DNA of 64,000 nucleotides, from NCBI GenBank assembly GCA_044361365.1, contig JBIKIW010000001.1:2501-66500 (forward strand), written 5' to 3'. The position numbers and the translations under genes were made by a program. The notes under the pieces were generated by a model that worked only from the letters and a program-made list of their open reading frames with translations, searched no databases and was not told where the DNA came from. Source of the stretch: Limisphaerales bacterium. Its GTDB lineage: Bacteria; Patescibacteriota; JACMRA01. Shown one piece after another: positions 1 to 35,959 of this stretch (position 1 is its first letter; the number at the start of each line of letters is the position of its first letter).

Positions 1-1
1 T

Positions 2-679
2 CAAGTTAAGAATTTGTATTTAGTTGCGAGCTGCCAAAATATTGGTGATTTTAAAACCGGAAAAGACTTTAGTTTGATCCAAAAAAATTGTGAAAATATC
101 ACCATTTACCATTCCAAAGATGATCAAGTTGTACCTTTTAGCGTGGCTCAAGAAATTGCTAGCAAACTACCTAAGGCAAAGCTGGTTGAATTTGAAAACC
201 GAGGGCATTTTGTGGAAGCAGAATTTGTGGAATTAAAGTCTCAAATTAGTGCGGATTTACGAGTTGAAAACAAGACAGATTTTGAGAAATTTTACCCGAC
301 TCAGGAAATGACAACAGCCAAAGAAATTTTTTATATTTGGATCGTGCGAATGATTATTTTAGGGAAATATTTTACCGGTAAAATTCCGTTTGAAAAGGTG
401 ATTATTACGCCTACAATTTTGGACGAAAAAGGTAGAAAAATGAGTAAAAGCTTGGGCAACGGTCTCGACCCGGTTGTAGCAATTGATCAGTTCTCTTCAG
501 ACAGTCTCAGGCTTGCGATGCTCGGTGGTATGATCCCAAACAGAAACATGAAAATGGGCGGAAAATTAGCCGAAAATATCATGCAAAAATACCGCAACTT
601 TGGGAATAAGATTTGGAATGTAGCTAGGTTTTTGGAGGGGAAGGAAGGGGAGAAGAAACAAGATTTTGATATAAAATAA
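2..679 (+). CDS. valS: Chimeric ORF, 5' partial. The C-terminal end of a YdeN/RBBP9-like alpha/beta serine hydrolase is fused in frame to a valyl-tRNA synthetase catalytic-core segment (KMSKS region).
   Basis: The frame is open to the window edge. Up to about nt 265 it reads like the end of a hydrolase (IYHSKDDQVVPF...FENRGHF). From about nt 266 the same frame reads ValRS core: FYPTQ, IFYIWIVRMI, GRKMSKSLGNGLDP (KMSKS loop), YRNFGNKIWNVARF. There is no stop codon between the two parts. Confidence 0.7.
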   Translation, partial: QVKNLYLVASCQNIGDFKTGKDFSLIQKNCENITIYHSKDDQVVPFSVAQEIASKLPKAKLVEFENRGHFVEAEFVELKSQISADLRVENKTDFEKFYPTQEMTTAKEIFYIWIVRMIILGKYFTGKIPFEKVIITPTILDEKGRKMSKSLGNGLDPVVAIDQFSSDSLRLAMLGGMIPNRNMKMGGKLAENIMQKYRNFGNKIWNVARFLEGKEGEKKQDFDIK

Positions 680-804
680 ACCTCAAAATAAATATTTAGA
701 CACTAGATATAGTGTTAAAACTTAACTTAAAATTACTATATTTAGAAAAAAAGTGAATTTTCATTGACGAAAGTGTTGATTTTAGCGATAAGATTAATAC
801 TTTT

Positions 805-2382
805 ATGTTTGTGAAAATAATAACTCCAAAAACTTACTTTTCAGATTTTTTTGGTGTTGAGCAGAAAACAATTGAAAAATATGGTGCTTTTAATATTTCT
901 TTATTAAATGATTTACCATTATTTATTGACCCATTTTTACTTTTTAATAGCAAAAAAGAAGAGTATCAAAAATTACACCAAGATATTATAGATTATTTAT
1001 TATTTTTAAAATCAATTTCGGTTGAAGAATTAACTAAGGGTGATATTGATAATTATTTTAAATTTCCTGAAATTAAACAAACTTGGCTGGGCTATTCAAA
1101 AACTGGAAATGGTGGGAGTGGGTTAGGTGAAAAATTTGCAAATGGGCTTACGGAAAGTTTTAGAAAATATTTAACCAATTTCGGACAAGAAAAAGGTATA
1201 AGCCCACATTTAGAAAAAATTTGCTTATTTGATACAGGAATTGGTAAAGATAATATAAGTGATTTTACAACTAATTTGATCGTTGGATATTTAGCTAATT
1301 ACACACAAAAATTTTCAAATAAAAATATAGATGATAAATTTTTAGAGGATTTTAAAATTGAAAAATACAAATTTAATTATAACACAAGTAGTTGGGTTCC
1401 AAAAGTTTTTAAGCTACCTTTTATTATCAAAAGTAACGGGAAGAAAGAATATGTCTTATTAACACCTAAAGATATTTTAACTAAAGACAATCCCTGGATT
1501 AATAATAAAGATAAACTTAATCAATTTAATACAATTTTAGAAATACTTCCAAATGAACAATTGAGATCTCAAATAAATAGATATTTTAACTCAATTTTAA
1601 AAAAAGACGAAAAGGGTAGGTCGAGTAAAAAAGATCAAAATCAGGCTAAACTACAAATTTATCAAGAATACCCAGAATTAATAGATTTATTCATTAAAAC
1701 TAAAGAAGAGAGTGGTGATCAGGCTATAGCAAATAGCAGTGAAATTGTAGCTCAAACTGAATCTATCTTTATAGATCTTGCTAGAGAAATTGTTAAAAAA
1801 TTACAATCTGAAACAAATTTCTATAAACAAAAAACAGATTCTTTCGAAGATATTTACAGGAGGTTGCTTTATTTTAAAGATTGGGTTGAAAATAAAGGAG
1901 GTTGGAAGTTATTTTATAATAAACACCGAGAAATTACGAATGAATCTGAACTCCAGCTACTTTTTAAACTAGCTCATTTTGAGTCAAAATTTGATATCAA
2001 CTCGGAAGTAGACAACGGTTCGGGTCCAGTAGATTTTAAATCTTCAATGGGTTCAAAAGATAAAACTATTGTAGAGTTTAAACTTGCGAGAAATAGTAAA
2101 TTTAAACAAAATGCTCACCCACAAGGACAAGTTAGAGTTTATGAAAAATCTAATAATACTAAAAAATCTATAAAAGTCTTTTTTTGCTTTAATAAAAGTG
2201 AAGTTCAGAAGGTTGAAAAAAGTATAAAAGAGTTTAAGCTAAATGAAAATCAAATTGTAATTATAAACTGTAATAGCCAAGTTTCTGCTTCAAATGTTGA
2301 TCCTGCTAAGTTTGATGATTGGGATATAGAGAAAATGAGCGAACCCTCTTTTGAAGAGCAAGAATTAAATTGGAAGATATAA
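805..2382 (+). CDS. Hypothetical 525-aa protein with a C-terminal PD-(D/E)xK nuclease-like motif
   Basis: Long uninterrupted ORF. The C-terminal segment ESELQLLFKLAHFE...GPVDFKSSMGSKDKTIVEFKLARN fits the E...D...(D/E)xK pattern. The N-terminal 350 aa are not recognised. Confidence 0.6.
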   Translation: MFVKIITPKTYFSDFFGVEQKTIEKYGAFNISLLNDLPLFIDPFLLFNSKKEEYQKLHQDIIDYLLFLKSISVEELTKGDIDNYFKFPEIKQTWLGYSKTGNGGSGLGEKFANGLTESFRKYLTNFGQEKGISPHLEKICLFDTGIGKDNISDFTTNLIVGYLANYTQKFSNKNIDDKFLEDFKIEKYKFNYNTSSWVPKVFKLPFIIKSNGKKEYVLLTPKDILTKDNPWINNKDKLNQFNTILEILPNEQLRSQINRYFNSILKKDEKGRSSKKDQNQAKLQIYQEYPELIDLFIKTKEESGDQAIANSSEIVAQTESIFIDLAREIVKKLQSETNFYKQKTDSFEDIYRRLLYFKDWVENKGGWKLFYNKHREITNESELQLLFKLAHFESKFDINSEVDNGSGPVDFKSSMGSKDKTIVEFKLARNSKFKQNAHPQGQVRVYEKSNNTKKSIKVFFCFNKSEVQKVEKSIKEFKLNENQIVIINCNSQVSASNVDPAKFDDWDIEKMSEPSFEEQELNWKI

Positions 2383-2527
2383 AAAACAACATAGGTTATT
2401 TTAGTTTAATTAAAATTTAAAAGATAGATTCTCATAAACCCCTATTTAATCAACAAATATCTTTTTATACGAAAGAAAAAAAGTTTTGTGAAAATTAAAG
2501 AAAATAAAAAAAGAAACTCGGACTTGC

Positions 2528-2983
2528 TTACCCCACCAACTTAATCTTTTGAAATTTAGAATATTTCTTACTTAGTTCAATATCCCTAGTCACAAACATA
2601 TCAACATTATTGTTAATACAGCAGGCGATTTGCAGGGCATCTTCAAAATCTTTTTGACCATAATTACTTATTGCCCATTTTGCGTCTTCTTTAGATGCAT
2701 TCATTATTTCAAAATCTTTCGTAATTTCTTCAGCTAAGGTTAAAAAATTCTTTTTATAATTTTCTTGATCTAGCTTGGGAATATCTTCAAATTTAAGGTT
2801 TTTTAAATCTTTTTTAAAACCAGATTCTGCATAATAAAATATGGTATGTAGCGATAAAATAGTTACTGCAGGAACGTCATCATGTGCTAACTCTTGTATA
2901 AAAGAAGTGCTTGTTTCGTGAGATTCTCTATGAGAATTCATTATGTCCAAAATTATGTTTGTGTCGAAAAGAATTGTTGCCAT
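2528..2983 (-). CDS. vapC: PIN-domain toxin (VapC-like)
   Basis: N-terminus MATILFDTNIILD carries the first acidic residue. The C-terminal FVTRD motif, the size (151 aa), and the position immediately downstream of a small antitoxin-like ORF fit VapC. Confidence 0.8.
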   Translation of the reverse strand: MATILFDTNIILDIMNSHRESHETSTSFIQELAHDDVPAVTILSLHTIFYYAESGFKKDLKNLKFEDIPKLDQENYKKNFLTLAEEITKDFEIMNASKEDAKWAISNYGQKDFEDALQIACCINNNVDMFVTRDIELSKKYSKFQKIKLVG

Positions 2984-2989
2984 GTATAA

Positions 2990-3280
2990 TTATATTTTAC
3001 GTTCGTTATAAAGTTTATTTATATCAGTATTTGGATTGATTGGTGGTAATTTTGAAGATATTTTTTTTTGTTTATCAAGAAATGAAACTACTCTTTTATT
3101 TTCGATTTTTGAGTCAGCATTTAGCACAATACTAAATCGTTTCATTTTTTCACCGCGACCGTAGGTAAATTCGACTTCTTCGCCGTTGTAATAAATATCG
3201 TTGACGATATCACTTAGGTTTTGGCGGAGTTGTTTGGCTGAGACTGTTTTCATAAAAGTTAAAAGGTTGAACTTTGTCAA
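2990..3280 (-). CDS. Phd/YefM-like antitoxin (VapB partner)
   Basis: MKTVSAKQLRQNLSDIVNDIYYNGEEVEFTYGRGEK resembles Phd/YefM N-termini. The gap to the PIN gene is 6 nt. The true start is more likely the ATG at 3253 than the TTG at 3280. Confidence 0.7.
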   Translation of the reverse strand: MTKFNLLTFMKTVSAKQLRQNLSDIVNDIYYNGEEVEFTYGRGEKMKRFSIVLNADSKIENKRVVSFLDKQKKISSKLPPINPNTDINKLYNERKI

Positions 3281-3298
3281 GGTAAAAGTAGTAGATAA

Positions 3299-3327
3299 AA
3301 CTTACCACTACTTTAAAGTATTGTCAA
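3299..3327 (-). promoter_or_regulatory. Candidate sigma70-type promoter with an overlapping inverted repeat (putative TA autoregulatory operator)
   Basis: On the minus strand: TTGACA (3327-3322), a 17-nt spacer, then TAAGTT (3304-3299). The inverted-repeat arms aaagtagt (3285-3292) and actacttt (3307-3314) bracket the -10 element. Confidence 0.35.
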
Positions 3328-3476
3328 GTATTATCAATAAAGTAGCTAATAAATTGTATTTAATAAAGTTGAAAGGTTAAACTTTTGATGGTATTTTTGG
3401 ATTTATTTATGTCAACTTAAATATTGCCCTGCCAAAACAATTTGCCCAAACTTAAAAAGATTCGTTAGGTTTAGAT

Positions 3477-4025
3477 GTGTCCAAAACTGTTTTGATTTCT
3501 TGTTATGGGGTGTACGATTTAGAGCATCGAAACCCACTTCAGATCCAGGGTTTGCAGTCTTATTTTGGGGGGATTTATAAATATTTAAAGCCTATTAAAG
3601 ACGATTTAAAGTCGGTGATTTTTTGTGGAGGTTATCGGAATTTGGCAATTAGTGAAAGCCAAACTAGTCGGGATTATTTTTTAACTTTAGGTGCTGATTT
3701 TGAAAATTTCCCCTTGCTTTTAGAAACTAATTCTAAGTCCACACTTCAGAATCTAGCTCTAGGCTTTTTAACTGCCAACGAAGGTTTTTTGGGTCAAGAT
3801 TTGCTGATAATTTGTGATAGTTTTAGAGTAGAAAGAGTTAAAAATTTATCCAAGATTTTGTTTGAAGATCTAGGGCTAAAAATTGAAGTAAAAGGCTTTG
3901 AACGAAAAGATGATCACCCTCATTCTGATCAAAAATACCAACTAGAAACTGCTCTTCCGGGAGATTTAAACAGTCCAGAACTACAAACTTGGAAACAACT
4001 TTTAACCACTCAAATTACAAAATAA
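3477..4025 (+). CDS. DUF218/YdcF-like protein
   Basis: CGGYRNLAISESQTSRDYF...LLETNSKSTLQNLALG...LLIICDSFRVERV matches the DUF218 pattern (GG..SEA, S.nT.eN, vTs.fH..R). The stop at 4023-4025 lies 3 nt before the ATG of the valS C-terminal fragment. Confidence 0.55.
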   Translation: MSKTVLISCYGVYDLEHRNPLQIQGLQSYFGGIYKYLKPIKDDLKSVIFCGGYRNLAISESQTSRDYFLTLGADFENFPLLLETNSKSTLQNLALGFLTANEGFLGQDLLIICDSFRVERVKNLSKILFEDLGLKIEVKGFERKDDHPHSDQKYQLETALPGDLNSPELQTWKQLLTTQITK

Positions 4026-4028
4026 TTT

Positions 4029-4847
4029 ATGCTACAAACTCAAAATTTATCGCCGGCTTCCATTTGGATTTTGCAAAAATATGTGGAATTAGAAAACAGA
4101 TTAGAAGAAAATTTGGTGACCTACGAATTAGCTCATTCGGTGGACGGTTTATACAAATTTTTGTGGGATTTTTATGCCGATTGGTATGTGGAATATATCA
4201 AAACTGACCCAAGTCAGGTGCCTTTTGCTAAAGATCTTTTTAAGCAATTTATAGTTACTCTAAACCCGTATTCACCGTTTGAAACTGAAGCCCTGTGGCA
4301 AGATTTTTTTGGAGAAAAAGAAAGTTTAGCTTTGGTGCAAAAAGATGTAAGTTGGGCTAAAAATATTTGGTCGCAGATTGATCAAAATAGGGTAGGTGAG
4401 TTCCAAACAATTGTGGATTTTATTTCAGATGTGAGATCTCTGAGGGGTTTATTTGCTATCGACCCGGCAGTTTTTTTGGAGGTAAATTCGTCCACCAAAT
4501 TGCTATCGGTTTATGCTGATTTTATAAAATCCAGCTCAAGAGTACACATTTTGGATCAAGAAGTTGAGGGTTTGTACGAAGTTGCTAGTCAAAATTATAT
4601 TTACAAAATTGATATTATTAAATACATTCCAGACTTCCAAAAAGAAATTAAACGAACTGAAAAAATCTTAGAAAGCCTAGAAAAGCAAATCAAAGCTTTG
4701 GAAAGTCAGCTACAAAATGAATCATTTTTGAAAAACGCTGAAGCTGAAGTAATAGCAGAAAAAAGACAAGATTTAAGGAATAGAGAGTTAGAAAAAACCC
4801 AGCAAGAGCAAAAACTAAAATACATAACAAGCTCGATTTTAAGCTAA
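4029..4847 (+). CDS. valS: Valyl-tRNA synthetase C-terminal fragment (anticodon-binding domain plus C-terminal coiled coil)
   Basis: SIWILQKYVELENRL...YKFLWDFYADWYVEYIK aligns to the ValRS segment that directly follows the NKLWNASRF motif. The heptad-like tail IKALESQLQNESFLKNAEAEVIAEKRQ is typical of ValRS. Confidence 0.85.
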   Translation: MLQTQNLSPASIWILQKYVELENRLEENLVTYELAHSVDGLYKFLWDFYADWYVEYIKTDPSQVPFAKDLFKQFIVTLNPYSPFETEALWQDFFGEKESLALVQKDVSWAKNIWSQIDQNRVGEFQTIVDFISDVRSLRGLFAIDPAVFLEVNSSTKLLSVYADFIKSSSRVHILDQEVEGLYEVASQNYIYKIDIIKYIPDFQKEIKRTEKILESLEKQIKALESQLQNESFLKNAEAEVIAEKRQDLRNRELEKTQQEQKLKYITSSILS

Positions 4848-4883
4848 TAATTGCACTACCACAACTAAACTAAATTTATAATT

Positions 4884-5336
4884 ATGCACTGTCCAAAATG
4901 TTATCACCAGCACACCAAAGTCTATGATACTCGCCTAAGCCAAGGTGGAAAAGCCACTCGAAGACGCCGAGAATGTGAAGACTGTGGCTATAGATTTACA
5001 ACCCTTGAAGAAGTAAAAGTGTTAGATTTGAAAGTAGAAAAACGAAATGGACAGTTGGTTGATTTTAGCCAAGAAAAGCTAGAAAAAGGTATTCGAAAGG
5101 CTTTTAACAAGCGAAATACTGACAACCAAAAAATTGCTCAGCTGGTTCAAAAAGTAATTGAAGATACTTTAGCTACCGGCAAAAACCCTATTAAATCAAC
5201 TAGAATTGGTAAAATTGTACTCAAAAATCTCAAAAATACCGACGAAGCCGCATATGTTTGTTTTGGAGCAATGTTTTTAAGCTTTGAGAGTATTGAAGAT
5301 TTCCAAATGCTTCTTAAAGATGTTCAAAAGGATTAA
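4884..5336 (+). CDS. nrdR: Transcriptional repressor NrdR
   Basis: MHCPKC...VYDTR...RRRRECEDCGYRFTTLEEV zinc ribbon followed by an ATP-cone region; 150 aa. Confidence 0.9.
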   Translation: MHCPKCYHQHTKVYDTRLSQGGKATRRRRECEDCGYRFTTLEEVKVLDLKVEKRNGQLVDFSQEKLEKGIRKAFNKRNTDNQKIAQLVQKVIEDTLATGKNPIKSTRIGKIVLKNLKNTDEAAYVCFGAMFLSFESIEDFQMLLKDVQKD

Positions 5337-5350
5337 CACATTTTAAATTT

Positions 5351-5917
5351 CTATTTTGAAGTATCTCTTTCCGAGTATTCATCTTCAACGGTATTTACCA
5401 GGATTTGCTCTCCAATTTTAATAAATCCTGGTACTTTCACAACTTTTCCAGTTTCAATGGTAGCATCTTTCATTACCCCTTGAACAGTATTTCCCTTATC
5501 TACATCTGCAGTAAGAATTACTTTATAAGAAATCTTAATAGGCAAATCGATACTTATAGGATTTTCGTTAAAATATATAATCGCAATCTCCAAACCTTCT
5601 TTAAGGTAATCAACTTTATCAGCCATAATACTACCAGGTATTTCTACAGTTTCATAGGTTTCAGACTCCATAAAACTAAGAACTTCTCCAGTTTTATACA
5701 TAAAAGTTGCCATTCTTTTGGCAAGATCTGCCTCTTCTACAGATTCTCCACTTTTGAAAGAGTAATCTACGTTATTACCGGTTATCAAGTTTTTCATAAC
5801 ACACTTCTTAACAGGTTTTCGTTGTTGCATTCTCAAAAAGTCACACTTTACAATCACACAAGGATTGTTATTAAACTGAACCACTTTACCCAGTTTAATT
5901 TCAGAAAAATCGAGCAT
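5351..5917 (-). CDS. efp: Elongation factor P
   Basis: 188 aa with the EF-P three-domain layout, including LRMQQRKPVKKCVMKNLITG and C-terminal OB-like repeats. Confidence 0.9.
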   Translation of the reverse strand: MLDFSEIKLGKVVQFNNNPCVIVKCDFLRMQQRKPVKKCVMKNLITGNNVDYSFKSGESVEEADLAKRMATFMYKTGEVLSFMESETYETVEIPGSIMADKVDYLKEGLEIAIIYFNENPISIDLPIKISYKVILTADVDKGNTVQGVMKDATIETGKVVKVPGFIKIGEQILVNTVEDEYSERDTSK

Positions 5918-6032
5918 AAATTAAATATAATTTAACTTATTTCAAAAGAGTTTGTTTTGTCAAAATATACCATGAATTAGGCTCGAATCGGCACCGTTTA
6001 GGCATGCTTAATAACTTATTTTTTATAACTGT

Positions 6033-11410: not shown

Positions 11411-11486
11411 TGGTGGGTATGGGTGGATTTGAACCACCGACCGCAGACTTATAAGATCTGTGCTCTAACCCCTGAGCTACATACCC
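11411..11486 (-). tRNA. tRNA-Ile (anticodon UAU), CCA encoded
   Basis: Sense strand: GGGTATG-TA-GCTC-AGGGGTTA-GAGC-A-CAGAT-CTTATAA-GTCTG-CGGTC-GGTGG-TTCAAAT-CCACC-CATACCC-A-CCA. This gives a clean cloverleaf of 76 nt. Confidence 0.75.
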
Positions 11487-11564: not shown

Positions 11565-12197
11565 TTACTCTTTTGTTTCTATATATTCAAACGGGAAAGG
11601 ATCTCCCCAATATCTTTGTCTGCTAAACACCCAATCTCGGAATTTAAAATTAATCTGCTTTTCACCCTTTCCAAGGTCAACCAATTTATTAGTAATTTTT
11701 TGCTTTGCTTCTTTTCCATCTAAACCACTAAACTCACCAGAGTCGAATAAAATTCCATATTTGGTAAAAATATCTCCATTTTTTAACTTTTCCTCACAGT
11801 TTTCTCTTGGCTTTCCGTCTTCACTAATAGTTTCTTTGAGAGGAATGTTGTATTTTAAAGCAAATTCTACGTCTCTTTCGTCGTGAGCATCTGCCATAAC
11901 TACCCCAGTTCCGTAATTAGCTAAAACAAAATCGGCAATCCAAACAGGAATTTTATCTCCTCGTAGTGGGTGTTTAACAAAACTACCTGTGAAGACTCCA
12001 GTTTTTTCTTTGTTAATTTGCCTCTCTCGTTCACTTTTGGCTTTGGCTTTTTGGATGTATTTTTCAACCTCTTGCCTAAATTCTGGTTTGGTTATCTCTA
12101 AAACCATCGGGTGTTCTGGAGCCATTACTAAAAATGTGGCTGCATAAATAGTATCAACTCGGGTAGTGAAAGTGGAAAGTTTGGTAGGTTTTGACAT
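11565..12197 (-). CDS. leuS: Leucyl-tRNA synthetase fragment (CP1 editing domain through the RDW..SRQRYWG strand only)
   Basis: TTRVDTIYAATFLVMAPEHP, IPVWIADFVLANYGTGVVMADAHDERDVEFA and FKFRDWVFSRQRYWGDPFP align to the LeuRS CP1 region. The HIGH, KMSKS and anticodon-binding parts are absent. The ORF has its own ATG and stop. Confidence 0.85.
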   Translation of the reverse strand: MSKPTKLSTFTTRVDTIYAATFLVMAPEHPMVLEITKPEFRQEVEKYIQKAKAKSERERQINKEKTGVFTGSFVKHPLRGDKIPVWIADFVLANYGTGVVMADAHDERDVEFALKYNIPLKETISEDGKPRENCEEKLKNGDIFTKYGILFDSGEFSGLDGKEAKQKITNKLVDLGKGEKQINFKFRDWVFSRQRYWGDPFPFEYIETKE

Positions 12198-12264: not shown

Positions 12265-14505
12265 TTAACTAAATAAAGTGTCTTGACCGCTAGTTTTTAT
12301 CTTCCACCTATCGTCTTCGGTTCTTTCAGCAATATCTTCCAAAACTCTTAAAATATCTTGGTTTTCAGGTGTGATTCCATTTTTAAGTAGTGGAATAATT
12401 TCCCAACAAATTTCATCAAAAGTAGGCAATTGTTTTTCTCGTTCTCTACGATTTAAAAGACTAATTAAATAGTATTTTATCCTTAATTCTAAAGGGATAT
12501 GAGTTCTAAATTTTTTATTTTCTCTGATAAAGTATTTTTGTGAATTAAAATCGTAGTCAAAATTGGCTGTCAAAATTGGAGTTAAATCGCTATATTCTTT
12601 GCTTAAAATATCCAAAAAACCAAGTTCCAAACCTTGGATAACCAAGGCGTCATTGATTTCTTCCAAAGTTGCTCCATGATTTTTAGCAATAATTCCTTCG
12701 ATAGTCTCCAAAACTATAGCTGCAATATCTGTACCCAAATTTGCTTTTAGGATATTTTTTGGACTGCGGACTTTTTTGAAATTGATAATCAGTTGTCCAG
12801 CGATTACAGTAAAAGGATTTTGTCGTTTTTTAAAGCTAGTTTGCCCATTTGCTTGCTTGACTGCTCCTGCGTACTCAAATCCCATCTTTTCAGCTGTTTC
12901 TACGATAATATGCCAGTAGTGGGGATCTTTGTGAGCAAAAACAAAACTCATCCAGCGATCAAATTTTAGCACCCTGTACATTTCAGATATACTTTTAGCT
13001 ATCAAGTCCGAATACTCATGTTTGGTCTTATTATGGCTACCTCCCTCGATGGCTTCTTTTTCAAAATCCTCTTCAGTTACGGGCAAATCCAGCCAAGCAT
13101 TCCACATTGCTGACAAATCCAAATAAGCAATTTTAGCTCCGTAAGGTGGGTCAGTATAAATATAATCTACAGATTCGTCTTCAACTTTATTCAAATCAGT
13201 AGCATCACCTTTATAGACTTGTAAATCTTGAATAGTTTTTTGGTTAATTTTGTCCTTGATTTCTTGTTTGGCTGAAATTATTTTCTTCACTTTGTTTTCA
13301 AATGAATTTATCAAATTTAATTCAACAGGAGTTTTAGCTACTCTGTATCTATAATAAGCGAAAGCAGCAGCATTTCCAGCATTTTCTCCACGAGAACTAG
13401 AGGCATGATAGGTTAAGTTGTGTTTGGTAACTGTACTTGAAAAAGCTAATAAAAGTGAATTTTGAATACTTTTGTCTTTTACTTTTTTGATTAAATGCTT
13501 CAAAAAGGCTAATTCGGCAGTTTGTAGCGAGCTAAATAATTCAGCTACAGTTTGGACATCGGCAGTTTTATCGAGCTTTATATTTTTTAGGTTTTGCCAT
13601 TCAGTTTTATATTTTTCAAGATATTCTTGAGGTTTTTCTTTAATTTTATTCTCTTCGTTTTCATACTTTTCTTTAATTTTTAAAAATTCTTCATGTAATT
13701 TAGCAATATCTGTAGGCTCACAAAGACTGTTGATTATAAAAACTGGTAAAGGATTGAGGTCGATTCCAATAGTTTTGCGAGCTTGCATTAAAGATTCGAT
13801 ACTAGTAACACCACTTCCTACAAAAGGATCTAGTACCAAATCTCCAGGCTGGGTAAAATGCTTGATATAATGACTAACAATATTCCAAGCTTGTTTGGTA
13901 AAATATCCGTGAACTCCAAAATGCCTAGCAGTTGACTGTTTTTTTACTGGTATTTCTTTTGGTAATGGTCGGTTCAAATAATCAAAGTCTGGTTGTAAAG
14001 CTGGCGACACGGTGGTCGCCTCTACGGAAAGGGAATTGGGTTTGTTGAAATTTTTTGGTGAAAGGAGTTTTTCTAACTTACCCCAATAATAATCAATTTC
14101 TTGAAGATCGAAACGAAGTAGGTTCTGGCTACTTTCTTTTTCCCAAAGGACAAATTCTCTTCCGTTGCACATTGCAAAATATTTAGCACGAATTTCTGGA
14201 TGAATAGCATAACCATAAACCTGTCCATCATCTTCACACTTTTCTTTTGGAGATTTCGCATCAAGAACACAAATTGAAAGCCCATTAGTTTGTAATAGAT
14301 AATCTGGTATTTCAGTTATTTGTCTTTTATTTGATCCAATTTTGTAAAAAGGATTTCTCAAACCTTTGTGTGATAAAATTTTAGCATCTTCTGTTGACCT
14401 AGAATAACCAAGTTTGATTAAAATTGGCATTATCAGGTCTTCCCGTACAGAGTCTTCTTTAAAATCTGGTGAATTTAACAAATCAAAGTTGAAGTTGGAA
14501 AACAT
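12265..14505 (-). CDS. Fusion of an HsdR_N-like PD-(D/E)xK fold with an amino (N6-A/N4-C) DNA methyltransferase
   Basis: N-terminus DSVREDLIMPILIKLGY...IPDYLL...VLDAKSP (nuclease-fold motif). SAM motif DPFVGSGVTS. Catalytic motif YTDPPYGAKI. 746 aa. Confidence 0.8.
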   Translation of the reverse strand: MFSNFNFDLLNSPDFKEDSVREDLIMPILIKLGYSRSTEDAKILSHKGLRNPFYKIGSNKRQITEIPDYLLQTNGLSICVLDAKSPKEKCEDDGQVYGYAIHPEIRAKYFAMCNGREFVLWEKESSQNLLRFDLQEIDYYWGKLEKLLSPKNFNKPNSLSVEATTVSPALQPDFDYLNRPLPKEIPVKKQSTARHFGVHGYFTKQAWNIVSHYIKHFTQPGDLVLDPFVGSGVTSIESLMQARKTIGIDLNPLPVFIINSLCEPTDIAKLHEEFLKIKEKYENEENKIKEKPQEYLEKYKTEWQNLKNIKLDKTADVQTVAELFSSLQTAELAFLKHLIKKVKDKSIQNSLLLAFSSTVTKHNLTYHASSSRGENAGNAAAFAYYRYRVAKTPVELNLINSFENKVKKIISAKQEIKDKINQKTIQDLQVYKGDATDLNKVEDESVDYIYTDPPYGAKIAYLDLSAMWNAWLDLPVTEEDFEKEAIEGGSHNKTKHEYSDLIAKSISEMYRVLKFDRWMSFVFAHKDPHYWHIIVETAEKMGFEYAGAVKQANGQTSFKKRQNPFTVIAGQLIINFKKVRSPKNILKANLGTDIAAIVLETIEGIIAKNHGATLEEINDALVIQGLELGFLDILSKEYSDLTPILTANFDYDFNSQKYFIRENKKFRTHIPLELRIKYYLISLLNRREREKQLPTFDEICWEIIPLLKNGITPENQDILRVLEDIAERTEDDRWKIKTSGQDTLFS

Positions 14506-17613: not shown

Positions 17614-20600
17614 ATGCCAAAAGATCTTCACCTTTTTGATAGTTACCAAAGAAAAGTTTTGCCGATCCAGTGCAGCGAAGAAGATAAACTAAAAATTTAC
17701 GGCTGTGGTCCAACAGTATATAATTATCAGTCTATTGGAAACATGCGAGCAGTCTGGTTACCGGATACAATTTCAAAAGTTGCTAAAATTGCCGGGTACA
17801 AAACTGAGTGGGTTAGTAACATTACCGATGTTGGGCATTTGGTGGATGATGGAGACGATGGTGAAGACAAAATCGAGAAAGGTGCCAAGCGAGAGCAAAA
17901 AACCGTGGAGGAAATTATCAACTTTTATGTACAAGATTTTAAGGATCAGTGCGGGGCATTAAACTTTGATTTGCCAGCTGGAAAATACCAACCAAAAGCT
18001 ACACAATATATTGGTGAACAAATGGTTTTGGCTTTGGAGCTACTGCGAGATGGGAAAGCTTACCTGACAGATGACGGGATTTATTTTGAGAATATCCCAC
18101 CAGATACAACATCTCCCCAACCCTTGTGGAACAGAGAAACACCCCCCCAACCCCCTTCAAAGGGGGAGTACATCAAGCTTACTAGTGTTCTTGAGGATAG
18201 GGATGTGTATTCTTCTACCTTTAGCCACCCCCCCAGCCTTCAAAGGGGGAGTACAAAGTCTAGGTTAGAACTTGCTCGGGAACACAAATTAAACAAAGAA
18301 GGTTGGGATTTTGTAGTTTATAACAATAAGTTGAATAAGTTTTCTAAAGAAATGCGAAAAAACCCCACGAAAGCGGAGAAAAAGTTTTGGGATGTTGTCC
18401 GTAAAGATAAGTTGTTGGGTGAATTTACCTGGAATCGACAAAAACCTATAGATAATTTTATAGCTGATTTTTACTGTAGGGAGTTGAAAGTGGTTATTGA
18501 AATTGATGGAGGTGTGCATAATTCTGAGCAAGCCAAAGGCTACGATAATGAGAGGGATAATATCCTAAGAGGTTTAGGTTTAGAAATGCTTAGATTTACA
18601 AATGATGAAATACTAGTTAATCCAAATTCAGTTTTGGCACAAATAAATGATTGGGCTAACTTATCACCTACGAGCTTTCAAGTCGAGAATACCCCCCCCT
18701 TGAGGGGGGTTGGGGGGATGTCTCCATTAAAGGGGTTAAGCCAAATTATTGAAACGATTCAAAATCTCCAAAAAGAAAAACCAAACAAACCTTTGATAAT
18801 AACTATCGACGGGCGAGGTGGGAGTGGAAAGTCAACTTTTGCTGAAAAATTGATTGAACTAATCCCAAATTCAGCTGCAATTGAACAAGACAAATTTTTG
18901 GAATTTATGAAAGGAATGGATACCAAATCTGACTCCTGGAACCATCGAAATTTTGAATTAGATAAACAATCTTTGCAGGAAGAATTGGAAAATCACAAAG
19001 ATAAAAAAGTGATAATCCTAGAAGGCATAAAAAGTTTTGCAAATATTGAATCTGATCTAAAAATTTGGCTTGATTCTAGTCAAAAAGATAACAAACAAAG
19101 AGCTAAAAAAAGAGATGTAAAAGGTGAAGTAAATTCAGATGGTTTTGAAATATTTTGGCAGGAGTTTGAGGTACATTCTCAAAAATATATTCAGGATTTT
19201 AAACCCGAGGAAAAAGCTGATTTCATAGTTTCGATAGAAGGTGATGGGTATGAGGTAATTTCAACTGATGACACAGAACTCGAAAAAATAGTTGGTACTA
19301 TTAATCGACTCAAAAAAGATAAAGGTGATAAACCAATTATAATAGCTATTGATGGTCGAGGCGGGAGTGGAAAGTCAATTTTAAGTAAGAAAATAGCTGA
19401 AAATCTCGAGGATGTAGAAGTTTTAGAATGTGATGATTTTTTTGATTTTGAAAAGCTAGATGAAAAGGTTTTTTTCTGGGATAAAGAAAGATTTAAAACT
19501 CAAATTCTAATACCACTGACTCAAGGCAAAGAAGCTATCTTTGAAAGCAATAATTGGATAGATCAAAAACTAGTCGGTAAAATAAATAAAACTGTGCAAT
19601 CAAAAAAATTTATTATACTTGATGGTTTGTGTACTTTGCAACAAGATTTGATCAAGTATTACGATCTTAATATTTGGGTTGAAAAAGAATTAGAATCATC
19701 ACTTCATGCCGCTAAAACACGAGATGTAAATGAGAGAAATAGAGCAGAACAAGAATTTCATGAATTGTGGGATAAATGGATTCCAGTTCAAGAGAAATAT
19801 ATCAATTTAGTAAAACCCCAGGAAAAAGCTGATATTATTATTTCTACTGAAAATGGTGGGTATGAGATTTTGGAAGATAGAACCAATCAAAACTACACCG
19901 GTCGTAACATAATCCAAACCGAAAAAAGAAATCCGCATGATTTTGCTTTGTGGAAATTTGTATCCGAAAATAGTTTGCAAAAATGGAAGTTTAATCAGTT
20001 TGAAAATACTGAAGATTTGATGATTGAGATTATTCAAACCCTCGATTCTAAAGATTACGATTTACCAAATAGATGGGGTTGCCCTGGTTGGCACAGTGAG
20101 TGCGTGGCGATGATTAGTGAGATACTTGGGCATCAGAGATTTTCTGGAAAGTTTGGGCATCTTCTCAAAGATAATTTGTATGAAATCGACATTCATACCG
20201 GCGGCGAAGATCATATCGATATTCACCACAAAAATGAAATTTTACAATCCAAAGCTCTTGGTTTTCATTTGTCCAAATATTGGGTTCACAACAAATTTGT
20301 GCTGGTTGATGCTAAAAAAATGAGTAAGAGTTTGGGGAATGTTTTTTTGGTTAAAGGCGATTTTAAAACAACAGGTTTTTATAGTTTCCAAAACCCGCCA
20401 ACTCAAGATTTTAGCGAGGAGTTTAAACAGCAGATTATTAAGAAATATAAGGAGCTGAAAATTTATGATTTGAATAAAAATCTAAGTGAAGTAGAAATAC
20501 CCCGTCAGTCTATGACTGCCACCCCTTCGCAAGCAAAGGGGAATATGGAGTTTGAAGAACAGTCCAAAAAAGAAAGTGTATTTTGGCAGAATTTTAGTTT

Positions 20601-21120
20601 CGACCCCATTGCTTACAGGTTGATGCTAATGGAACATCACTACACTGAACAGATGAATTTTACCTGGGAAAAGCTTTGGCAAAGCCAAATGAGACTCTGG
20701 AATTTGCGAAAAGATGCTGCTAGAATTATCAGTTTTGCAACTCAAAATAAAACTAAACCAGAAACCGATCAAAAACAAATTCAAATACTTTTGGACTATC
20801 TTTTAGATAATTTAGATACACCAAAATTTGTGGAAAAATACCAGAACTTTTTGGGAGATGTTATAAATGAAATTGCAAAAAATAATGTTTTAAACCCTAA
20901 AAATTTGGGAGCAATTCTATTTTGGGAAAAGGAACTTTTGAAGTTAAATTTTAATCCAAAAATATCACCTGAAGTTATTGAGTTAATCGAGCAAAGGCAA
21001 GAGGCAAAAATTGCCAAAGATTATCAAAAATCTGATCAAATTAGAGTTCAAATTCAGGCTCAAAATCTGCAAGTTGATGATTATAGTTGGGGTAGTGGAG
21101 TTTGGAAGAGATTAAATTAA
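17614..21120 (+). CDS. cysS: Cysteinyl-tRNA synthetase with two large in-frame insertions
   Basis: CysRS motifs: YGCGPTVYNY, RNPHDFALWK, GCPGWHSEC, DIHTGGEDHIDIHHKNE, KKMSKSLGN, MEHHYTEQMNF. The ORF is interrupted in frame at 18097-19890 (598 codons) and at about 20365-20592 (76 codons). Confidence 0.9.
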   Translation: MPKDLHLFDSYQRKVLPIQCSEEDKLKIYGCGPTVYNYQSIGNMRAVWLPDTISKVAKIAGYKTEWVSNITDVGHLVDDGDDGEDKIEKGAKREQKTVEEIINFYVQDFKDQCGALNFDLPAGKYQPKATQYIGEQMVLALELLRDGKAYLTDDGIYFENIPPDTTSPQPLWNRETPPQPPSKGEYIKLTSVLEDRDVYSSTFSHPPSLQRGSTKSRLELAREHKLNKEGWDFVVYNNKLNKFSKEMRKNPTKAEKKFWDVVRKDKLLGEFTWNRQKPIDNFIADFYCRELKVVIEIDGGVHNSEQAKGYDNERDNILRGLGLEMLRFTNDEILVNPNSVLAQINDWANLSPTSFQVENTPPLRGVGGMSPLKGLSQIIETIQNLQKEKPNKPLIITIDGRGGSGKSTFAEKLIELIPNSAAIEQDKFLEFMKGMDTKSDSWNHRNFELDKQSLQEELENHKDKKVIILEGIKSFANIESDLKIWLDSSQKDNKQRAKKRDVKGEVNSDGFEIFWQEFEVHSQKYIQDFKPEEKADFIVSIEGDGYEVISTDDTELEKIVGTINRLKKDKGDKPIIIAIDGRGGSGKSILSKKIAENLEDVEVLECDDFFDFEKLDEKVFFWDKERFKTQILIPLTQGKEAIFESNNWIDQKLVGKINKTVQSKKFIILDGLCTLQQDLIKYYDLNIWVEKELESSLHAAKTRDVNERNRAEQEFHELWDKWIPVQEKYINLVKPQEKADIIISTENGGYEILEDRTNQNYTGRNIIQTEKRNPHDFALWKFVSENSLQKWKFNQFENTEDLMIEIIQTLDSKDYDLPNRWGCPGWHSECVAMISEILGHQRFSGKFGHLLKDNLYEIDIHTGGEDHIDIHHKNEILQSKALGFHLSKYWVHNKFVLVDAKKMSKSLGNVFLVKGDFKTTGFYSFQNPPTQDFSEEFKQQIIKKYKELKIYDLNKNLSEVEIPRQSMTATPSQAKGNMEFEEQSKKESVFWQNFSFDPIAYRLMLMEHHYTEQMNFTWEKLWQSQMRLWNLRKDAARIISFATQNKTKPETDQKQIQILLDYLLDNLDTPKFVEKYQNFLGDVINEIAKNNVLNPKNLGAILFWEKELLKLNFNPKISPEVIELIEQRQEAKIAKDYQKSDQIRVQIQAQNLQVDDYSWGSGVWKRLN
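18140..18168 (+). repeat. Left terminal inverted repeat with internal hairpin cccccttcaaaggggg
   Basis: Read directly from the sequence; the hairpin spans 18151-18166. Confidence 0.7.
18226..18255 (+). repeat. Second, direct partial copy of the left repeat
   Basis: The 19-mer ccttcaaagggggagtaca is shared between 18154-18172 and 18237-18255. Confidence 0.7.
18691..18720 (-). repeat. Right terminal inverted repeat
   Basis: The sequence accccccccttgaggggggttggggggatg is the reverse-complement match to 18140-18168. Confidence 0.7.
20497..20544 (+). repeat. GC-rich two-hairpin element (about 48 nt), copy 1, in frame inside cysS
   Basis: ataCCCCGTCAGTCtatGACTGCCACCCCTTcgcaagcAAAGGGGAAt. The same architecture occurs at 34125-34172 and 34260-34310 on the opposite strand. 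Confidence 0.7.
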
Positions 21121-35471: not shown

Positions 35472-35959
35472 GGGGATGACCTAGTTTTGACAGTTGGATA
35501 TTGGCTAAAACATACTAGATAGTTTTGCTTATTTTTTCTATAAAAACGAGTAGCACTTTTAAATGCAAACAATTCAACTTCTGCCTTTGAGAAAATCGGA
35601 GGACGTATCGCACAAGCTTTAGGTCTCGAGATCACTCAGGGCGTACCCCAAACAGCAATCGCCTAGTTTAGTTGCCACTTATTGGCAGAATATCCCTCCG
35701 GATAAAATCTAAACATGGGGTACACAATTACTTTTATATTGGATTTGGCGTAAGAGTAAATTGTAGAAAAACAACACAAATTCCTTGGTTAAGTTGTTAG
35801 CGGGCTAACCGAGTACAATGCTAACAGTGTGCTTAAAACTTTTTTGATTTGGTTTGAGATCACACTTAAAACAATTAAATCAAATATGCGTCTAGTTTGA
35901 AAAAGTGTTTTAGACCCAAATCCAATTGGACGGGGGTGCAACTCCCCCCATCTCCACCA
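35472..35959 (+). ncRNA. ssrA: tmRNA (SsrA)
   Basis: The 5' GGGGATG pairs with the 3' CATCTCC, including the G3-U pair, followed by ACCA. The T-arm-like GGACGGGGGTGCAACTCCCCCC precedes it. A candidate tag frame starts at GCA 35565. The length of 488 nt is at the long end for tmRNA. Confidence 0.85.

Follow-up and report, generated by a model that had tools for sequence, protein, structure and literature searches.

The locus described here raises the question of how a bacterium can make valyl-tRNA synthetase (ValRS) when the gene for it, valS, is interrupted by other genes. It lies in a 64,000-nucleotide stretch of contig JBIKIW010000001.1 (positions 2,501 to 66,500 of the forward strand; hereafter the window), in which an open reading frame (ORF) at 2-679 ends as a ValRS catalytic core would, an ORF at 4029-4847 begins as a ValRS anticodon domain would, and positions 680-4028 separate the two. 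An earlier reading, made from the sequence alone, had attributed this split to a four-gene cassette bearing a toxin-antitoxin (TA) pair, and had favoured a functional two-piece or multi-piece enzyme over a decaying pseudogene. Our analysis makes it highly probable that the window carries the last two of three genes that jointly encode one ValRS in an uncultivated freshwater bacterium.

Three pieces of valS

ORF 2-679 was found to be open from the window edge (listed as 14-679) and to stop at a TAA codon at 677-679. It showed a Pfam match to tRNA-synt_1 (1.3e-22, profile positions 317-403 of 414), contained the KMSKS signature as RKMSKSLGN and ended in ...NVARFLEGKEGEKKQDFDIK, 13 residues past the ValRS helix NVARFLE. 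ORF 4029-4847 matched Anticodon_1 (1.1e-15) and Val_tRNA-synt_C (9e-8) and started with MLQTQNLSPASIWILQKY, 7 residues before the anticodon-domain motif SPASIWIL. The terminal peptides at the junction are ...FLEGKEGEKKQDFDIK and MLQTQNLSPASIWILQK, and a fused relative (L020) reads NVARFLESKEAQKKQFSDPSSASIWILQKF across the same point. Since this relative reads continuously there, no ValRS residues have been lost between the two window ORFs. The claim that the split lies at the boundary of catalytic core and anticodon domain with nothing missing is therefore borne out by both the ORF ends and the fused relative, and the ORF coordinates had been given correctly, including the stop of ORF 3477-4025 only 3 nucleotides (nt) before the ATG at 4029. 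The assignment of ORF 2-679 to ValRS was right from about codon 90 onwards; the first ~89 codons are instead the end of an alpha/beta-hydrolase domain.

Piece 1 and most of piece 2 lie upstream of the window and were read from longer contigs (e.g. L002). Piece 1 is an ORF of 118 amino acids (aa; L002:495-851) that carries the HIGH-type motif NLTGNMHAGH and aligns to residues 32-100 of T. thermophilus ValRS (1GAX). Its discovery confirmed the guess that more than two pieces might be involved. Piece 2 is an 858-aa ORF (L002:3098-5674), the last 225 residues of which correspond to window 2-679; it aligns to 1GAX residues 114-471 and then 472-596, while piece 3 begins at about residue 602. The first break thus falls inside the N-terminal Rossmann half. 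The CP1 editing motif (GTG..K.TPAHD type) was located as FGTGILKVTPAHDQFDY in the part of piece 2 upstream of the window.

Exactly between the piece 2 positions equivalent to 1GAX 471 and 472 sits a serine-hydrolase insert of ~200 residues, for which PDB matches to YdeN (1UXO, 1.1e-9) and RBBP9 were obtained over aa 561-721 of the 858-aa protein. The segment of this insert inside the window gave a weak Pfam match to Abhydrolase_1 and maps at 100% to the full-length contig sequence (L002:4658-5263 region). Its catalytic motifs are intact, with the GHSLGG nucleophile upstream of the window and the Asp and His regions (SKDDQVVP and NRGHF) inside it, and the insert is under purifying selection.

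On these alignments, piece 1 contains the HIGH motif together with the beginning of the Rossmann fold, piece 2 the remaining catalytic core, the CP1 editing domain, the serine-hydrolase insert, KMSKS and the helix before the anticodon domain, and piece 3 the anticodon-binding bundle and the coiled-coil tRNA arm. The valS features of the window are as follows.

2-268, + strand: C-terminal part of the YdeN/RBBP9-like serine-hydrolase domain, at aa 634-722 of the 858-aa valS piece 2 and in frame with it
269-679, + strand: final 136 aa of valS piece 2, with the second Rossmann half (FYPT...), the KMSKS loop and the helix YRNFGNKIWNVARF preceding the anticodon domain
4029-4847, + strand: valS piece 3, 272 aa, with the anticodon-binding helical bundle, stem-binding module and C-terminal coiled-coil tRNA arm

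The junctions are real sequence. The 272-aa piece 3 protein was recovered, identical and in the same arrangement, on 22 contigs that had been assembled independently (ENA, JGI and Logan), and two of these match window 1-6000 at 100%. An assembly artefact was ruled out on this recurrence across three sources, with two contigs identical over 6 kb.

Distribution of split and fused forms

A search with piece 3 returned about 75 clusters whose members are stand-alone proteins, 259-298 aa in length, with identities of 42-81%. Among 115 homologous cores, 60 lacked piece 3, 10 lacked both piece 1 and piece 3, 3 lacked piece 1 only and 42 were fully fused; the last group supplies the uninterrupted alleles that the sequence-only reading had proposed to look for among relatives. 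The position of the break is closely kept: piece 2 always ends 0-13 residues past NVARFLE, with TAA or TAG and never TGA as the stop in those examined, and all stand-alone piece 3 ORFs start 2-12 aa ahead of the motif LSxASxWIL. An artefact of genetic code 25 (UGA read as Gly, in Gracilibacteria/SR1) was ruled out on the TAA and TAG stops of piece 2; a tRNA-Trp(CCA) and long ORFs under table 11 in the window also count against this code.

In a sister species (piece 3 at 76% identity), a 182-aa gene, piece 3 and nrdR sit together behind SecY/SSB/SmpB. A second contig from that sample carries piece 1 and piece 2, with a different cassette between them (glyoxalase, Tag glycosylase, glyoxalase). 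Genome representatives showed several arrangements: in seven, the 10 kb upstream of piece 3 contains no further piece; in three, pieces 2 and 3 are separated by 1.8-5.3 kb; and seven are fused. The same split between pieces 2 and 3 is present in a complete 1.27-Mb chromosome (OY969926.1), where 5.3 kb lie between a combined piece 1+2 and piece 3. A YgjP-like (PF01863) metal-dependent hydrolase gene recurs in the gap between pieces 2 and 3 of two distant split species (L090:4945-5490 and L091:8373-8921).

On a neighbour-joining tree, at least 11 and at least 8 changes of state were counted at the two break sites. The gene nrdR follows piece 3 not only here but also in L092 and the sister species, and it has the same place in the fused relative L027; by this shared gene order it marks the ancestral 3' flank of valS. 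We are confident that the break separating piece 2 from piece 3 is heritable and old, and that the clade has gained or lost it on several occasions. The attribution of the split to the TA-bearing cassette of this strain does not survive this comparison, because the split is far older and the sister species keeps piece 3 behind SecY/SSB/SmpB with the catalytic piece elsewhere. In our assessment, positions 680-4028 almost certainly did not cause the break and do not form one unit.

Conservation, selection and predicted structure

Ratios of non-synonymous to synonymous substitution rates (dN/dS) were calculated against the sister species. Values of 0.085, 0.157 and 0.127 were obtained for pieces 1, 2 and 3, respectively, a level similar to that of neighbouring nrdR (0.059); the 182-aa gene gave 0.15. 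Within the species, piece 3 haplotypes differ by 10 synonymous and no non-synonymous codons, and the 3' part of piece 2 differs by 47-49 synonymous and 9-10 non-synonymous codons, with a dN/dS of 0.04 between haplotypes. When concatenated, the three pieces retain 158 of the 160 columns that do not vary among 30 fused ValRS from the clade, and 263 of the 276 columns conserved at ≥90%. Judged by these patterns of substitution, the pieces are functional genes and not a decaying pseudogene.

The opposite explanation, in which a cassette broke valS and the enzyme is made from an intact copy elsewhere, draws on the fact that the window spans only 64 kb of the genome. It must, however, accommodate a dN/dS of 0.04-0.16 on every piece, valS pieces free of frameshifts and internal stops across all 22 contigs, the 158 retained invariant residues, and a split that persists to 42% identity over ~75 clusters with the pieces retained even after they have become unlinked. 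No second valS was found by tblastn with all pieces within the 64-kb window and the 20-kb flanks of relatives, and an intact copy elsewhere in the genome is unlikely because of the selection acting on the pieces. We consider decay very improbable. The preference for a functional multi-piece ValRS expressed in the earlier reading is thus upheld by purifying selection, by the retained residues and by inheritance of the split over dozens of species-level clusters.

Structure prediction with AlphaFold2 (AF2) gave piece 3 alone a mean predicted local distance difference test (pLDDT) score of 93.8, with 1GAX and 4XKZ as the best PDB matches; 4XKZ is a ValRS anticodon domain crystallised by itself. 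A fused relative (P0175) was modelled with a pLDDT of 82.8 and 1GAX as its best match, and both breaks map to interhelix loops of this model (residues 111-119 and 757-764). We propose that the three polypeptides are made separately and, by analogy with split synthetases, would reassemble non-covalently into an active enzyme, with the helix ahead of the piece 3 helical bundle coming from piece 2. Bound tRNA would probably aid this reassembly.

It was also considered whether pieces 1 and 2 alone constitute a working ValRS, with piece 3 acting in trans as an independent tRNA-binding protein that enters no stable complex, or in some other role. The predicted autonomous fold of piece 3 would suit such a role, as would the frequent lack of linkage between pieces 2 and 3 and the varied context upstream of piece 3. 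Every residue that does not vary across fused-enzyme anticodon domains is nevertheless retained in piece 3, and the dN/dS of this piece shows it to be constrained like the core. Fused and split forms moreover alternate among close relatives, and piece 3 should therefore have the same function in both. ValRS is a class Ia enzyme that reads the anticodon as a major identity element, which also counts against piece 3 as a separate protein. Overall, an independent role for piece 3 appears improbable, and assembly of all three pieces into one ValRS is preferred.

The variable slot between pieces 2 and 3

The DNA between pieces 2 and 3 comprises the following features, with nrdR beyond piece 3.

645-2419, no strand: strain-variable slot with four alternative contents within one species (from blastn, gene content and guanine-cytosine (GC) fraction)
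805-2382, + strand: 525-aa accessory gene of a defence-candidate family, with a C-terminal PD-(D/E)xK-like region
2528-2983, - strand: gene for a 151-aa PIN-domain toxin in a type II TA pair (PIN_3 3.9e-9, PIN 2.7e-8)
2990-3280, - strand: 96-aa putative antitoxin gene, separated from the downstream PIN gene by 6 nt
3281-3476, no strand: intergenic region from which the TA pair and the 182-aa gene diverge
3477-4025, + strand: genus-restricted 182-aa gene, DUF218-like (sub-threshold), the upstream partner of valS piece 3
4884-5336, + strand: nrdR (Pfam Zn_ribbon_NrdR and ATP-cone), the downstream neighbour of piece 3

The edges of the slot were obtained by blastn of window 1-6000 against contigs L001-L009. 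The left edge lies at ~645-652, inside the last codons of piece 2, and the right edge at 2397-2419, or at 3098 in strains with a different PIN toxin; the latter breakpoint falls within the 96-aa antitoxin gene (2990-3280). Four alternative contents were found: the 525-aa gene, a DUF4365 protein, an SLFN/AlbA_2 protein, or two ORFs without an assigned family. Because the left boundary is within coding sequence, each cargo rewrites the last residues of piece 2, and a different tail comes with each of them (...GKEK, ...GEKKQDFDIK, ...GEGKGS and ...GEGKSIE, each followed by its stop). The valS pieces have a GC fraction of 0.33-0.38; over 680-3300 it is 0.23-0.29, and at the 182-aa gene it regains core levels. 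Strain variation is confined to the 525-aa gene and, in a subset of strains, also affects the PIN toxin, so the four genes once read as a single cassette do not belong together.

The 525-aa gene was assigned by PADLOC to PDC-M36A (7e-26; a candidate system only) and carries precomputed DUF8370/DUF8371 annotation together with a weak, sub-threshold match to PDDEXK_9 (0.0026). In L001 and L009 the PIN protein is 131 aa long and 31% identical to that of the window. The PIN toxin and the small gene 6 nt upstream on the same strand have the layout of a type II TA pair; the 96-aa putative antitoxin has a sub-threshold match to Phd/YefM (0.0078, 16.4 bits against a cut-off of 29.8) rather than to VapB. 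Of the labels first given to the genes in the gap, the PIN toxin therefore held (3.9e-9), while PD-(D/E)xK, VapB and DUF218 all fell below the Pfam thresholds. PADLOC gave no meaningful match for the DUF4365, SLFN/AlbA_2, 304-aa and 202-aa slot proteins. As in a defence hotspot, the content of the slot varies between near-identical strains and its flanks are conserved.

The two flanks differ in depth of divergence. The 3' end of piece 2 (window 3-652) showed ~90% DNA identity to L001, L004, L005 and L009 with a dS of ~0.55, a between-species depth, and DNA identity to the right of the slot was ≥99% in L001 and L004 and 94-97% in L009 and L005. By these comparisons, old piece 2 haplotypes are linked to different cargos, and the deep piece 2 haplotypes set against the ~10 silent differences of piece 3 would fit exchange of whole alleles by recombination in the flanks. 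In two strains (L004:5690-5716 and L009:2860-2898), the last codons of piece 2 (encoding KEGEG and AAGGAGGGGGAGGG) form a strong Shine-Dalgarno-like (SD-like) run, AAGGAGG, and the first cargo gene starts 4-18 nt beyond it. In these strains the cargo is thus probably coupled in translation to valS piece 2, as read from the spacing.

The gap between pieces 1 and 2 (L002) contains a Mrr type IV restriction enzyme (PADLOC type IV, 1.5e-71), a methyltransferase and a glyoxalase, to which additional small ORFs and a glyoxalase duplicate are added in strain L001.

Since pieces 2 and 3 lie on the same strand, in order and with a complete junction, removal of the intervening DNA was weighed as an explanation, whether by excision of a skin-like element, by an intron or by protein splicing through a split intein. 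The slot cassettes were found to encode no recombinase, integrase or transposase domains (Pfam, gene content and PADLOC). An integrative element with attachment (att) repeats was rejected, the only flanking repeats being short, chance-level ones in AT-rich DNA, with no direct repeats beyond chance. An intron or ribozyme was likewise rejected: an Rfam scan of the whole window returned only tRNAs and transfer-messenger RNA (tmRNA), with none in 680-4028. The genes in the gap also lie on both strands, the termini of the pieces are short variable tails without intein blocks, and the pieces are unlinked in many species. Removal of the DNA is accordingly the least credible of the explanations, and separate expression of the pieces is retained.

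The 182-aa gene and transcription

The 182-aa gene reached 26.3 bits for DUF218 against a Pfam cut-off of 27.6, and the precomputed annotation has no Pfam domain for it. It precedes piece 3 in both species, with a gap of 3 nt here and 4 nt in the sister species. Because it travels with piece 3 and has a core-like GC fraction, it is not cargo of the cassette. A role as a general partner or assembly factor was ruled out, as its homologues form only 4 clusters (74-100% identity) in one genus-level group and no match was found upstream of piece 3 in other species. On this distribution, it is a local conserved neighbour. Piece 3 would probably be translated by coupling from the transcript of the 182-aa gene, and the intergenic region 3281-3476 is likely to contain the promoter for a transcript of the 182-aa gene, piece 3 and nrdR.

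Origin of the breaks

The loop of the first break also holds in-frame foreign sequence in relatives (DUF559 in P0127), and hydrolase, GNAT, NUDIX, HAD and DUF559 domains were found in frame at the site equivalent to 1GAX 471/472. At the N-terminus of ValRS, HAD and Ham1 domains were found in relatives. These insertions raise the possibility that fission at permissive loops is generally caused by an ancestral mobile cassette that brings a stop and a start with it, the current contents being later replacements. Both gaps in this species hold accessory genes, and the tail of piece 2, which is rewritten with each cassette and encodes the SD-like AAGGAGG for the next gene, would also fit such an origin. 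No split has been caught at its origin, however, many species have no cassette near piece 3, and a nonsense or frameshift mutation in the linker combined with an internal start explains the data equally well. We therefore regard this origin as conceivable rather than likely.

A broader proposal can be made only tentatively. In this clade, ValRS may be an open scaffold whose permissive loops repeatedly capture foreign DNA, and the same apparently applies to further class I synthetases (such as the cysteinyl enzyme, CysRS, described below). Capture in frame would perhaps add an enzyme domain (hydrolase, GNAT, NUDIX, HAD, Ham1 or DUF559). Capture with stops and starts could conceivably break an essential gene into co-dependent pieces, and defence and addiction genes would then find a sheltered landing site in the gap. 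On this view, the insertion of domains and the fission of genes may both result from one process of foreign-DNA capture. If so, the fission of essential genes would be recurrent and driven by mobile elements rather than a one-off accident.

Several points weigh against the interpretation of this locus as an old, recurrently split ValRS flanking a defence slot. The search for a second valS reached the 64-kb window and the 20-kb flanks of relatives, which leaves formal room for an intact copy elsewhere. Physical association of the three polypeptides is a proposal, and the loop positions come from a single-chain prediction. The counts of fission and fusion are rough, as the neighbour-joining tree carries no support values, and some of the proteins scored as lacking piece 1 could be mis-called starts. 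The defence role of the slot is read from family names, with three of the four alternative large genes lacking a PADLOC match. Lastly, the promoter-like sites at 3369-3397 (+, with TG) and 3415-3388 (-) are consensus matches and do not exceed the expectation from shuffled sequence.

Relation to known split synthetases and defence hotspots

Split aminoacyl-tRNA synthetases (aaRS) are already known, and what is new here is the enzyme, the three-piece form, the break in the Rossmann fold, the recurrence and a hotspot anchored in coding sequence. To our knowledge, the few known split aaRS are single, fixed events. In Nanoarchaeum equitans AlaRS and in bacterial PylSn/PylSc, the catalytic part and the tRNA-binding part of an essential or dedicated aaRS are encoded by unlinked genes, in organisms that are genome-reduced or specialised. 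Those are class II enzymes in two pieces, in a state fixed in the lineage, whereas up to three pieces are found here, and fission and fusion recur within one clade.

The closest precedent is the alpha-beta LeuRS of A. aeolicus, a natural class Ia synthetase encoded by two genes whose products reassemble into an active enzyme (PMC3643597). Both are class Ia enzymes from separate genes, with reassembly observed there and proposed here. The A. aeolicus enzyme is split inside the leucine-specific domain before KMSKS, so that its small subunit carries this signature; in the ValRS described here, the core retains KMSKS, and the break separates the catalytic core from the anticodon domain. The present case differs further in its second break, located in the N-terminal Rossmann half, in the enzyme concerned, and in its occurrence in many species with fused relatives interleaved.

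Fragment complementation is known for E. coli MetRS and IleRS. Artificially split synthetases resemble the present case in that cuts in surface loops, even within the nucleotide-binding fold, are tolerated in vivo, and engineered split aaRS have been shown to reassemble and work (PMC9974479). Likewise, M. pneumoniae PheT split by promoter-carrying transposon insertions stays functional (PMC12494982). The artificially split enzymes are laboratory constructs, however, whereas the split of valS is natural, selected and heritable. A literature search that left most subscription journals outside its reach found no natural split ValRS, no split aaRS in Patescibacteria and no clade-wide pattern.

With regard to the slot, core defence hotspots of Pseudomonas aeruginosa are fixed slots between conserved core genes (PMC10250203). 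They share with the valS slot a fixed position and strain-variable restriction, nuclease and TA genes. Here, by contrast, the flanks are halves of one essential gene and the left boundary is inside its coding sequence. Because it is anchored inside an essential gene, the cargo of such a hotspot would be hard to lose by deletion.

Split aaRS are rare natural experiments on the modular build of ancient enzymes. This clade offers one enzyme as one, two or three polypeptides among close relatives, with foreign enzymes inserted nearby, and such matched natural pairs could inform on the assembly of class I synthetases, the coupling of tRNA recognition to catalysis in trans, the choice of cut sites for engineering, and the tolerance or use of essential-gene fission in genome-reduced symbionts. 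In practice, the pieces are annotated as 'partial' ValRS and can distort estimates of completeness and marker genes for genomes of the candidate phyla radiation (CPR).

Other features of the window

Two further synthetase-related genes were noted. A 1168-aa ORF at 17614-21120 (+) contains a CysRS catalytic domain (PF01406, 2.7e-50) in two stretches, with in-frame inserts of a DUF559/Vsr-like endonuclease (aa 239-345), an AAA_18/zeta-toxin-like P-loop domain (aa ~386-501) and a PRK/uridine-kinase domain (aa 630-744). It is thus a second class I synthetase that carries whole enzymes as inserts. A 210-aa ORF at 11565-12197 (-), conserved in all strains, encodes a stand-alone LeuRS CP1 editing domain (PF13603, 5.3e-51) and adjoins a 746-aa N6/N4 DNA methyltransferase (12265-14505, -). 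The remainder of leuS is not present in the 64-kb window; leuS may also be split, or editing may be performed in trans.

The window contains no rRNA. It carries a tRNA-Ile with the anticodon UAU at 11411-11486 (-). Bacteria normally read AUA with a lysidine-modified CAU tRNA, and a tRNA-Ile with UAU is unusual. At 488 nt, the tmRNA match at 35472-35959 (+) is longer than its model of 374 positions, and this points to an insertion or an extended variable region.

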